Virus record (IMG/VR): IMGVR_UViG_3300032270_000152
Coordinates: 1-41,631 of that record
Direction: 5' to 3' (one strand)
Source of the DNA: a virus
Taxonomy: Duplodnaviria; Caudoviricetes
Length of the DNA stretch: 41,631 bases
This document shows, piece by piece, positions 4,084 to 17,221 of the stretch; position 1 is the first letter of the stretch; every line of letters starts with the position of its first letter. The notes under the pieces were generated by a model, which saw only the letters and a program-made list of their open reading frames with translations, ran no database searches and was not told the origin of the DNA. The position numbers and the translations under genes are program-made.

Positions 4084-4572
4084 ATCACCGTTGTATCTTC
4101 CGGTGATCGCATAGGACTTCTCAGGTCTGCCAGCAATGTGGTGAAATACCATCTGACCGATCTTCATCCCAGGCCACAATGCGATGTTGTGATACCGGCG
4201 GCTGTTGTGTAGTTCCAAAGTGAGACGACTGCCGTGCCATCCTGGATCGCAGTATCCGGCGAGCAGATGTTCGAGCCCTTCGCGTGCGCGGCTTGACTTG
4301 AGGACAAACTGCGCCGCGACAAAATCAGGCAGGTTGAAGATCTCCTGCGTCTCACCTAGTGCAAACTCACCAGGCGCCAGATAGTACGGGCTGGACTGAG
4401 TGTGATGGCTGATGTCGTACGGTTGAAGGTCCAGCGAATGCTTGACCTCCAGCATCAGGTTGTTGCCGAGCAGCACATCAAGGCTAGCAGGATTCTGAAG
4501 ATCTGGATTGTACGGAAGCACCATGGCTTCATGAATACACAATTCCCTGATCTCATGGTCTGGAATGATCAT
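4057..4572 (-). CDS. dcd: dCTP deaminase
   Basis: QNPASLDV, KSSRAREG, AGYCDPGWHG, LTLEL, PGMKIGQ; TGATG overlap with the endolysin stop. Confidence 0.93.
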   Translation of the reverse strand: MIIPDHEIRELCIHEAMVLPYNPDLQNPASLDVLLGNNLMLEVKHSLDLQPYDISHHTQSSPYYLAPGEFALGETQEIFNLPDFVAAQFVLKSSRAREGLEHLLAGYCDPGWHGSRLTLELHNSRRYHNIALWPGMKIGQMVFHHIAGRPEKSYAITGRYNGDLTVTASRG

Positions 4573-5159
4573 CAATAATCCCAACGAACGCGAGGTTGAC
4601 CTTTGCGGATGCCAAGGTGTACAAACCCCTTGGGCGCCCCATAGCCTACCGAGTACGGCCAAATACGATCGCAGAACTTCTGCACTTCGTAGATGTCGGT
4701 CTTCTCAACGTAGAAGTCAACGGCGCCGACGCTAGGTGCGTCGTATAGGTGCTCAGAGCTGCTGGCACCACCAACGCTGCGGTTGATGATTGGCGGCCTG
4801 TATCCGCTGGTGATGACCACGGTATTGTTCCCGAAGGTCATCCTGACGCGCTCCAAGAACTGCGCCAGCTTCAATGCCGTATCGCACTGGTGCTGATGAT
4901 CGAAGCGCCGAACTTCTTGGTAAAGCGCAAACTCGCCGTAGACGATGTTGGGCGTGATGCGGAAGTCGAAGGGACTGTCGGGCTTGAACTGCCCTGACTG
5001 GCTCCAGGTCTTGAACCATGGCCTGTCGCGGCGCATGGCGATGTTGTAGCCGGCAGTGAGGATGTCCTGCTCCAGTTCGGCGATGGCTGCCAGCTGGTGC
5101 GGCATTCCACGATTGAAGCGGAACAGCTGTTCCAGTGTGATCGGTGCGTTGTTAGTCAC
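4572..5159 (-). CDS. endolysin, peptidase M15 family
   Basis: ITSGYRPP..N..VGGASSSEHL...AVDF...GFVHL zinc-peptidase motifs; GTG start chosen by overlap with upstream stop. Confidence 0.9.
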   Translation of the reverse strand: MTNNAPITLEQLFRFNRGMPHQLAAIAELEQDILTAGYNIAMRRDRPWFKTWSQSGQFKPDSPFDFRITPNIVYGEFALYQEVRRFDHQHQCDTALKLAQFLERVRMTFGNNTVVITSGYRPPIINRSVGGASSSEHLYDAPSVGAVDFYVEKTDIYEVQKFCDRIWPYSVGYGAPKGFVHLGIRKGQPRVRWDY

Positions 5160-5325
5160 GTTCCCATGGAGAGTGGATACTGATCGGACCGCCAAGCAAA
5201 CGGCTGTCGCCAGTTTGCGCCTCAGTGTCAACCGGATGATGCTGGATCACCGGCTCAGGCATGGCTGGCGGCTGCGTGGCGTGCCAATCCTTGATGGCAG
5301 CGTCGAGCCGTGGCCCGACGGTCAA
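5152..5325 (-). CDS. Pro-rich lysis-cassette ORF; probable -1 frameshift extension of the holin, or TTG-initiated
   Basis: Open frame LTVGPRLDAAIKDWHATQPPAMPEP...SPWERD exactly fills the gap between holin and endolysin. Confidence 0.65.
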   Translation of the reverse strand: MTVGPRLDAAIKDWHATQPPAMPEPVIQHHPVDTEAQTGDSRLLGGPISIHSPWERD

Positions 5326-5334
5326 CGCTTTGGG
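5301..5334 (-). promoter_or_regulatory. putative -1 programmed ribosomal frameshift signal
   Basis: In-frame C CCA AAG heptamer, 7-nt spacer, then hairpin CGTCGGGC-CACG-GCTCGACG. Confidence 0.6.
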
Positions 5335-5465
5335 AAGGCAAGCCGCAGGAATTGGAGGACCAGCTGGATGATGCTGTTGGACTTGAGCGGGCTGATGCCG
5401 ATGATCTCACTAGCAGCTGCAACAGCAATGGCGATACCTGCTGCGGTGTTGGCGTCGATGCTCAT
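5322..5465 (-). CDS. putative holin (47 aa membrane protein, not in ORF track)
   Basis: MSIDANTAAGIAIAVAAASEIIGISPLKSNSIIQLVLQFLRLAFPKR: hydrophobic with a basic C-terminus, upstream of the endolysin. Confidence 0.7.
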   Translation of the reverse strand: MSIDANTAAGIAIAVAAASEIIGISPLKSNSIIQLVLQFLRLAFPKR

Positions 5466-5731
5466 GGGTTGACGTGATTGGTTGCTTCAAGCCTAGCGAT
5501 GCGTTGCTCAGCGGTGCCCAGGCGTCCGAACAGCTCTCGGCGGTCGGTACGCATGTCCTCGCGAATGGCTGTAAGCTCTGAGGCAATATGCTCGACGCCA
5601 GAAGAGAGTTTGGCGATGGCTAGGTTGGCCGCCTGGTCCTCTTGACCACGACGGTCCACCCATTTGGCAGCCTTGCCGCCCAAACCGCCCAAGAACAAAC
5701 AGGCCACGCCCACGATGAGGTTTTCAATCAT
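5462..5731 (-). CDS. membrane-anchored coiled-coil protein of the lysis cassette
   Basis: N-terminal hydrophobic helix followed by a heptad pattern; ATGA overlap with the holin. Confidence 0.75.
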   Translation of the reverse strand: MIENLIVGVACLFLGGLGGKAAKWVDRRGQEDQAANLAIAKLSSGVEHIASELTAIREDMRTDRRELFGRLGTAEQRIARLEATNHVNP

Positions 5732-15850: not shown

Positions 15851-16383
15851 CTACCGGCTGCGGCGTTTTGCCTTATCCATCTCCTGTTGCTCGCGCTTGC
15901 CTTTTACCTCGTAGTAGGCGGCAAAATGCACAAACTCATCATCTGTCAATTCTTGCCGCAACTGACTCACGGTCTTGCCTAACTCAGTCGCCAGGAAAAA
16001 CTCAAAGAAGAGCCAGTTGTCGGCTTCTAGTCGTTTTTTGCTGTCTCCAGGGATTCAGCTTGGCCGAGGCCAAACAGGAACAACTCAAGCTCATTCAGCA
16101 CCTGCTCCGGCAGTTCCCGTTGCAGTTTCACCGCATCAGCTGCGGCGAAGGCTTTGGTGCCGTCTTCAAGCTCAGCCTTATGGCACAGCATCTGCGTGCT
16201 GATGTCCAGCGCTTCATCGGTGCCTGAAAGCCCGGTGGCACGTTTGCGATCGGCGCGGGTGATTGGCGTGAAGTAGAGCGACAGCACCACCGTGCCATCC
16301 TCTTTCTTCACGTCAAACCGCCGACGTTGCGTCAGATCAAAAGCACCGGTGAGCAGGTCAACGGTGCGGGTTGTTGCAGGCAT
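15851..16383 (-). CDS. tail assembly chaperone gpGT (-1 frameshift product)
   Basis: A AAA AAC at 16039-16033; the -1 frame RLEADNWLFFEFFLATELGKTVSQLR... is open to TAG at 15851. Confidence 0.8.
16027..16383 (-). CDS. tail assembly chaperone gpG
   Basis: Lies between tail tube and tape measure genes; ends in a slippery site. Confidence 0.85.
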   Translation of the reverse strand: MPATTRTVDLLTGAFDLTQRRRFDVKKEDGTVVLSLYFTPITRADRKRATGLSGTDEALDISTQMLCHKAELEDGTKAFAAADAVKLQRELPEQVLNELELFLFGLGQAESLETAKND

Positions 16384-16802
16384 CAGACACTCAGAGTGAT
16401 TGTTCCGTTCATGGTGAAGTTGATCGTCACCATTTCAAGCTCGCCGACAGTGGCGCCGTATTCGGTGGAGTTGATCACGATGCTACCCGTGATCTTCTTG
16501 CCGCCAGTTTCATCAAGGTACAGCTCAACGAAGGCATTGCCTTCATCGGTTGCTGTGCCGACATCCTTGATCAGGTCCAGCTTATCGCCGGCACCTGGAG
16601 CATCGTACAGCACCTCCATGCTGCCGGTACCACCAAGGAGTCCGCCAATGTTGGCCTTGTAGGTTGCGCCTTGAGCGGTGGTCTCAAGAACATCCTTTTC
16701 CACGGTCATTGACCATGAACGCACGGCAGCGATCTCGGAGATGCCGCCGCTGCTGTCTTTATCGAAAAAGACAGTACCTTGCTCGCCGCGATAGAAAGCC
16801 AT
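16383..16802 (-). CDS. major tail (tube) protein, copy 2
   Basis: MAFYRGEQG...RSWSMTVEKDVLETT...EYGATVGELE; paralog of 16805..17221. Confidence 0.85.
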   Translation of the reverse strand: MAFYRGEQGTVFFDKDSSGGISEIAAVRSWSMTVEKDVLETTAQGATYKANIGGLLGGTGSMEVLYDAPGAGDKLDLIKDVGTATDEGNAFVELYLDETGGKKITGSIVINSTEYGATVGELEMVTINFTMNGTITLSV

Positions 16803-16804
16803 GA

Positions 16805-17221
16805 TCAGATCGAGGTGGTGATGGTACCGGAAGTGGTGAAGTTACAGGTGATAACTTCAAGCTCGCCGACGGTGGCGCCATACTCGGCGGAAGTGATCAG
16901 CCCGGTGAAGCTAATCTTCTTGGTGCCGCTGGTGTCAAGGAACAGCTCAAAGGTGGCTGTCGCTCCATCAGTGGCGGTATTGGCCGCCTTGATGAAGACA
17001 TTAGTCTCATCAGCACTTGATGCGGTATAGAGCACCTCAACGGTGCCGCTACCGCCGATCAGGCCGCCGATGTTGGACTTGTAGGTGGCGCCCAGAGCGG
17101 TGGTTTCCAGCACGTCCTTTTCAATGGTCATCGACCATGAACGCGTGGATGCGATGGTGGTGTTGGCTGAGCCTGCATCGTCAAACTTGACGGAGCCTTG
17201 CTCGCCTCGATAGAAGGCCAT
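16805..17221 (-). CDS. major tail (tube) protein, copy 1
   Basis: MAFYRGEQG...RSWSMTIEKDVLETT...EYGATVGELE; follows the tail terminator. Confidence 0.85.
   Translation of the reverse strand: MAFYRGEQGSVKFDDAGSANTTIASTRSWSMTIEKDVLETTALGATYKSNIGGLIGGSGTVEVLYTASSADETNVFIKAANTATDGATATFELFLDTSGTKKISFTGLITSAEYGATVGELEVITCNFTTSGTITTSI

Follow-up and report, generated by a model that had tools for sequence, protein, structure and literature searches.

A predicted programmed −1 ribosomal frameshift in a lysis-cassette membrane gene of cyanobacterial siphoviruses and podoviruses

The virus record IMGVR_UViG_3300032270_000152, all 41,631 nucleotides of which we refer to as the window, is complete at 41.6 kb, and its head and tail genes are those of a siphovirus; the host is inferred to be picocyanobacterial because the relatives of the locus analyzed here are Synechococcus phages. 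On the minus strand, an 89-aa gene is followed by a gene for a small membrane protein (ORF1), an open −1 frame (the tail), a peptidase M15 endolysin gene and a dCTP deaminase gene (Table 1). The best 19-residue hydropathy of ORF1 is 1.78, and 116 of 170 candidate sequences are homologues. In the −1 frame, 58 residues past the shift would give a 104-aa product; the first ATG lies at 5261, and the TAA (5154-5152) is positioned 3′ of the endolysin GTG (5159). A first-pass annotation of this DNA had described the heptamer, its phase, the 7-nt spacer, the hairpin, the 58 residues and an extended form of about 104 aa, and every coordinate proved exact, as did its statements that the −1 frame has no ATG near its 5′ end and stops across the endolysin start.

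Table 1. Features of the ORF1 locus in the window
Feature	Position	Strand	Remarks
Upstream 89-aa gene, phrog_26178	5462..5731	-	N-terminal hydrophobic segment and coiled-coil-like part; usual neighbour
ORF1, 47-aa membrane protein (short form)	5322..5465	-	phrog_22542, no named function
In-frame slippery heptamer C_CCA_AAG	5328..5334	-	Context TTC CCA AAG CGT TGA; conserved in family
7-nt spacer CGTTGAC	5321..5327	-	Includes frame-0 stop TGA 5324-5322 and non-conserved TTG 5325-5323
8-bp hairpin, possible local stimulator, not family-wide	5301..5320	-	Fold −13.4 kcal/mol, 8 pairs, one G-U
−1 frame tail, 58 aa	5152..5328	-	Helix, Pro-rich linker, C-terminal GDSRLLGGxxxIxxPW; end spans endolysin start
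Endolysin, peptidase M15_3 and conserved 56-aa N-terminal domain	4572..5159	-	phrog_28234; profile position 1 is the GTG at 5159

A single locus of this kind proves little, since XXXYYYZ heptamers occur 75 times on the two strands of the window (0.9 per kb) and the hairpin taken alone is not significant against shuffled sequences (z −1.30; 25 of 200 fold equally well). The evidence is carried by conservation across the family. Assembly error is ruled out by contigs from two other studies (X4 and X9), which span the junction with no indel there. The one RNA run, X20, yielded a 190-nt contig of a relative, which is not evidence of expression.

Elsewhere in the window, a second in-frame slip site, A_AAA_AAC (16039-16033, minus strand), lies at the end of an ORF (16027-16383) located between the genes for the major tail protein and the tape measure. 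From there the −1 frame stays open for 62 codons, with a match to a tail PHROG, making this a candidate for a classic G/GT chaperone pair. ORF1 was itself considered as a tail assembly chaperone of the G/GT type and rejected, the slot between major tail and tape measure genes being occupied by 16027-16383. Two tandem paralogous major tail protein genes (16383-16802 and 16805-17221, minus strand) both belong to phrog_10528.

Homologous loci were collected from viral contigs with three ORF1 alignments (the best 80 of 522, of 557 and of 551 matches) and with the tail as query (the best 80 of 236, which skews the sample toward tail-bearing loci), and from metagenomes (the best 80 of 387), genomes (6) and six GenBank records. 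A tblastn search of cultured phages with the 47-aa protein gave no match, while longer queries did match. The resulting 396 sequences included 391 with a closed ORF1, which reduced to 277 distinct 150-nt junctions. A tail profile matches 233 of the 277: 232 in the −1 frame, one in +1 and none in frame 0. The sole +1 case, L196, has A_AAA_AAG upstream of what appears to be an indel. Three of the 44 junctions with no tail match were cut short and dropped; 16 of the remaining 41 retain a heptamer, and 12 of these, which show an evident divergent tail on reading, were reassigned by eye to the tail-bearing class.

The first-pass annotation proposed that heptamer and phase be compared across homologues, and both are conserved: 231 of the 232 junctions with a −1 tail carry an in-frame slippery heptamer (the exception is L124), and 232 of 233 tails are in the −1 phase. 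The motif is A_AAA_AAG at 188 of the 231 sites, C_CCA_AAG at 27, G_GGA_AAG at 11, C_CCA_AAA at 4 and A_AAA_AAA at 1, so that 226 junctions use one of the first three. The frame-0 stop lies one codon past the heptamer in 205 junctions and directly after it in 26. The codon preceding AAA AAG spans 11 amino acids; among tail-bearing ends that encode [AGPTV]KK, 172 of 179 are written nnA AAA AAG, versus 5 of 119 occurrences in long ORFs of the same loci. Selection for KK at the protein level cannot explain this usage, since just 21% of third positions within ORF1 genes are A, and by this comparison the slip site is kept beyond protein-level needs. Another 29 junction contexts, some of them overlapping loci already sampled, came from a later scan; 27 have the heptamer, L549 has G_AAA_AAG, and in L585 the AAA AAG lies upstream of the scanned region.

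Slip site and tail also tend to occur together. After the reassignment by eye, the heptamer is found in 244 of 245 tail-bearing and 4 of 29 tail-less junctions, which are not independent of one another. A weak tree of 102 columns places 15 changes in tail presence; across six supported independent pairs, changes in the joint direction average 3.8 and in the opposite direction 0.0, which is not significant (median p 0.125). L008 (2130-2160) has a clean deletion of the tail with C_CCA_AAG retained and an endolysin GTG one base after the stop, and looks like a recent tail loss.

One alternative is that the tail has a start of its own. The −1 codon that overlaps the ORF1 stop (n = 231) is CTG in 129 cases, CTA in 46, GTA in 26, TTG in 12, TTA in 11, ATA in 5, GTG in 2 and ATG in none. 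ATG, GTG or TTG is present inside ten codons at 26 of the 231 junctions. The selection test was confined to tails whose first 15 codons contain no ordinary start (178 of 223), which gave 70 non-overlapping pairs. Tail pN/pS in these pairs is 0.18 in the −1 frame versus 1.23 and 2.22 in the other frames, and stop-bearing codon pairs number none in −1 and 20 and 88 in the other two. By these measures purifying selection acts on the stretch of tail that precedes any ordinary start. The first-pass annotation had also asked whether homologues lack a heptamer and share an independent start; in the main family they do neither.

These figures make it improbable that the tail is a separate gene, translated from a coupled start at the stop-overlapping codon (the TTG in the window) behind an A-rich end that merely codes basic residues, even though the −1 phase is the phase of ATGA coupling too and a CTG or ATN codon lies nearby at 179 of 231 junctions. 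The absence of ATG from the overlap, the scarcity of TTG there and the 34 of 231 junctions at which table 11 offers no start as far as five codons beyond the stop all count against such a start, and the near-uniform nnA AAA AAG spelling is at odds with the low frequency of third-position A. Coupling does find precedent in the wider family. A slip site is missing from S-CBS2 gp49/gp48 and L399, where a GTG overlaps the stop, and six loci (L400-L405) encode the tail domain as a free gene, from which we conclude that translational coupling is, as these sequences read, used in a distant branch. A union of the two frames by RNA polymerase slippage, with the ribosome playing no part, is more improbable still: a six-A run is present in 181 of 231 sites, but 38 sites, including those of the window's class, have only three A, seven or more occur in just 8, and the terminal G of AAG is a signature at the level of tRNA. 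The claim of the first-pass annotation that a −1 frameshift yields two products from one gene is strongly supported by the slip site, the phase, selection on the tail and the lack of a conserved start, and we consider it very probable, on this comparative evidence, that a programmed −1 frameshift operates in a lysis-cassette membrane gene of cyano-siphoviruses and -podoviruses.

Elements that might stimulate the shift were less evident. A 5′ internal Shine-Dalgarno (SD)-like stimulator occurs in dnaX and IS911 and is optional; in our 114 representatives an SD-like site is present in 4%, versus 12% and 37% in control windows. Nor is 3′ structure enriched family-wide in the same set: the 40 nt after the site have a mean z of −0.46 at +5 nt, versus −0.25 to −0.37 elsewhere in the tail, and the 14 C_CCA_AAG sites have a mean fold z of −0.91. 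The hairpin that the first-pass annotation put forward as a stimulator folds as described, and in ten close relatives two of its pairs are changed on both sides, with a covariation score of 0.181 versus 0.101 for shuffled alignments (2/500). This signal is modest given how closely the ten sequences are related. The hairpin looks weak and limited to this subgroup, in which it is a possible local stimulator; across the family it does not serve as one.

Sharma et al. (PMC4066793) list C_CCA_AAG, G_GGA_AAG and A_AAA_AAG as the most efficient motifs in Escherichia coli when stimulators are present, tie their efficiency to tRNA-Lys(UUU) on AAG, and report that the motifs shift weakly when no stimulator is provided. 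Given this weak unstimulated shifting and the lack of a family-wide stimulator, the shift rate at ORF1 may be low. A pattern search of 61 picocyanobacterial genomes detected a tRNA-Lys(UUU) arm in 60 and a CUU arm in 4, and hosts with the CUU-like arm might damp shifting at A_AAG. Among the four genomes with such an arm (L504-L506), two have it about 200 nt from the UUU copy.

The case for ORF1 as a lysis protein comes from its position and composition. Its single hydrophobic segment has basic residues solely on the C-terminal side (mean 0.00 before and 2.30 after, 229 genes), and by the positive-inside rule the tail is predicted to be cytoplasmic. Small size, a transmembrane segment and a basic C-terminus, the features used to recognize holins, are all present. 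Where at least 900 nt of downstream sequence is available, ORF1 directly precedes the endolysin N-domain at 163 of 239 loci. It occupies a lysis-cassette position in P60, S-CBS1, S-CBS3, KBS-S-2A, S-CBS4 and DSL-LC07, standing immediately ahead of the endolysin in S-CBS4, with a lysozyme on either side in DSL-LC07, and in P60 between the endolysin and the terminase small subunit, which is the slot of the T7 holin; L345, like P60, has ORF1 before the terminase small subunit. S-EIVl and S-CBS2 are positional exceptions in which the gene has no adjacent same-strand lysin. Holins span many unrelated families, and ORF1 matched no Pfam, NCBIfam or named PHROG family and no clear PDB fold. The suggestion in the first-pass annotation that ORF1 is a holin thus fits gene position and hydropathy and finds no counterpart among holin families. 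We regard a lysis role for the ORF1 family as likely, and it is somewhat more probable than otherwise that the short form is the hole-former, "holin" here denoting what position and hydropathy suggest.

Candidate spanins were considered as well, and none was recognized in the cassette. ORF1 was rejected as a spanin, having no Cys and a charge bias that suggests a C-in topology; nor is the Cys of the myovirus homologues invariant. In S-LBS1 (L165, 2279-2939), the endolysin is related, but the place of ORF1 and tail is taken by small genes unrelated to them, a non-orthologous replacement.

Several cultured phages carry the arrangement. A_AAA_AAG and a tail are present in S-CBS1, S-CBS3, KBS-S-2A, 7B11-B and S-B28, and S-EIVl has G_GGA_AAG; P60, S-CBS4, DSL-LC07 and the uncultured MedDCM-OCT-S37-C6 have ORF1 with neither site nor tail. 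The tail has been mis-started or missed in the GenBank records of S-CBS3 (gp22), S-CBS1 (gp23), KBS-S-2A and S-B28, as a frameshift would explain. In S-B28 (L491, 1765-2043) the annotated terminase small subunit starts within the unannotated tail, and the ORF1 homologue is likewise unannotated.

The tail also occurs joined to other sequences. Protein records of in-frame ORF1-tail fusions of 131 aa, from 12 (JGI) and 23 (Logan, ENA) contigs, join the two parts at the predicted register, and no DNA for such a fusion was found among the best 80 of 169 viral contigs. Fused proteins known from single contigs (P0122, P0123, P0129 and P0130), most of them possibly sequencing indels, serve as proxies for translation only, and in cluster P0138 the junction is garbled. 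A model of one single-contig fusion, used as such a proxy (pLDDT 82.6, pTM 0.40), contains a helical hairpin (7-22 and 27-41), a long helix and a small strand-helix-strand end. In fold searches, all BFVD matches were cyanophage homologues, PDB gave nothing at E ≤ 0.001 and ESM Atlas only hypothetical clusters, and in VIA the best Z of 5.1 falls on a generic helical hairpin and barely covers the tail. L507 (1343-2229) has a distant ORF1 (E 2e-8) that ends in A_AAA_AAG, followed by a −1 frame of 249 residues that runs from tail into lysozyme and has no ATG, GTG or TTG before an internal ATG at the lysozyme start; a shift at this site would yield a membrane-anchored lysozyme. A nine-member protein cluster has the same tail-lysozyme join. 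The tail is further homologous to the C-terminus of cyanomyovirus phrog_3316 proteins (hhalign 96.6%, E 5.8e-10). The N-termini of those proteins (E 0.063) and of the free-standing tail genes could be aligned with ORF1 by eye, but neither alignment is significant, and we do not count them as fused ORF1 homologues. The tail is dispensable in many relatives, and it does not strictly accompany the endolysin N-domain; at 9 of 22 loci with no tail, the same N-domain is still adjacent. Prediction of a complex between tail and N-domain scored 0.02 (mark 0.32), a result that carries no weight either way. Two further arrangements were noted. An ORF1-like segment is embedded in proteins of 177-213 aa (P0146, P0150, P0153, P0155 and P0157), where it precedes a second hydrophobic stretch ending in a lipobox-like Cys (two were tested, with no Pfam match), and in L348 (2931-3137) the endolysin N-terminal domain is a free 69-aa gene.

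The explanation that best combines these observations, and which we think probable as a whole, joins a frameshift, a holin-like 47-aa form and a 104-aa form that would, as a minor accessory subunit, connect the lesion in the membrane with the endolysin. On CCA AAG, tRNA-Pro and tRNA-Lys(UUU) are likely to re-pair on CCC AAA. The majority of ribosomes would stop one codon on, releasing what is probably a holin-like membrane protein, and a minority would shift by −1, skip the stop and add the 58-residue tail behind the same anchor. Shifted ribosomes would end just past the endolysin start and may feed endolysin translation. The linking role assigned to the tail follows from the lysozyme fusion and the gene overlap only, and we offer it tentatively, as the best of several guesses. 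Going further, and more doubtfully, sipho- and podovirus-type cyanophages may share a recoded lysis module in which the shift turns a minority of holins into membrane tethers for the endolysin, with the tail encoded in frame after a membrane anchor in T4-like myoviruses and, in L507, a single holin-tail-lysozyme polypeptide as the product of the shift. If so, recoding would set the amount of membrane-bound enzyme.

Antiholin and non-holin accessory roles follow close behind the endolysin-linking role. The long form could be an antiholin or timer that co-oligomerizes with the short form, its charged tail delaying hole formation so that the shift rate sets the time of lysis, with lambda S107/S105 as a parallel. 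Both forms would have the anchor in common, and tail-less relatives, 25 of 29 of which have no slip site, are expected of a dispensable regulator; a lineage with only the in-frame fusion, the fusion to lysozyme and the membrane-anchored myovirus homologues of the tail are a better fit to a positive role, and we judge the antiholin proposal rather unlikely. The fusions found point, in our reading, at least as much to an endolysin link as to an antiholin role. A similarly low probability attaches to the proposal that the upstream 89-aa protein is the holin and both ORF1 forms are other accessories of envelope lysis, such as stand-ins for a spanin. Members of the 89-aa family have a hydrophobic segment at the N-terminus and make up the largest cluster of genes upstream of ORF1 (144 loci), so that the 89-aa protein is a rival holin candidate, and no spanin was recognized in the cassette; a cytoplasmic tail, as the placement of basic residues predicts, and the lack of a conserved lipobox do not suit a spanin. 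Under the preferred account, a candidate holin module can be named for Synechococcus phages, where the records examined label the lysis genes hypothetical, and since cultured phages carry the module, direct tests can be made of how often the shift occurs and how it affects latent period and burst size.

A frameshift was reportedly proposed for the MS2 lysis gene in 1982 and followed by a termination-activation paper in 1987, to go by their titles. We found no report of an ORF1-family frameshift in the open-access literature searched. The word "holin" is absent from the portion of PMC5009743 consulted and from the texts of PMC3711429 and PMC4066793, and "frameshift" from that of PMC12843271. 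A predicted parallel comes from Streptomyces phages of cluster BI2, for which frameshifts in lysis regions near holins have been listed; those are heuristic GeneMarkS calls for phages of other hosts, with no motif analysis in the passages concerned (PMC9671017).

ORF1 shares features with several known systems and departs from each. Programmed −1 frameshifting in tailed phages is known mainly from tail chaperone and structural genes, and G_GGA_AAG, one of the ORF1-family motifs, is the motif of lambda G/GT. In that pair, too, a short gene carries the slip site at its 3′ end, and a minor, C-terminally extended form has the N-terminal part in common (PMC5009743). ORF1 is in contrast a lysis-cassette membrane protein and not a soluble chaperone before the tape measure gene, and the window has its own, separate site of the G/GT type at 16039-16033. 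Lambda S105/S107 resembles ORF1 as one lysis gene with two products at a set ratio, but the ORF1 forms, whose roles are predicted, differ by a recoded C-terminal domain of 40-110 aa and not by two N-terminal residues. With E. coli dnaX and the IS3 family, the ORF1 family has in common the three most efficient X_XXA_AAG motifs and, in its likely hosts, a tRNA-Lys complement that is mostly UUU only (PMC4066793); it differs in having no conserved 5′ SD-like element or family-wide 3′ structure and in placing the frame-0 stop zero to one codon past the heptamer in all 231 sites. The cyanomyovirus proteins of phrog_3316 (T4-GC 852, S-PM2 p159) also carry a tail-homologous C-terminal domain behind an N-terminal hydrophobic segment and are encoded near lysin-like genes, but each is a single in-frame gene whose anchor is not significantly similar to ORF1. 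The mechanism is already known; the class of lysis genes appears to be new to it, and a conserved case of this kind would add a gene class to −1 frameshifting in phages.
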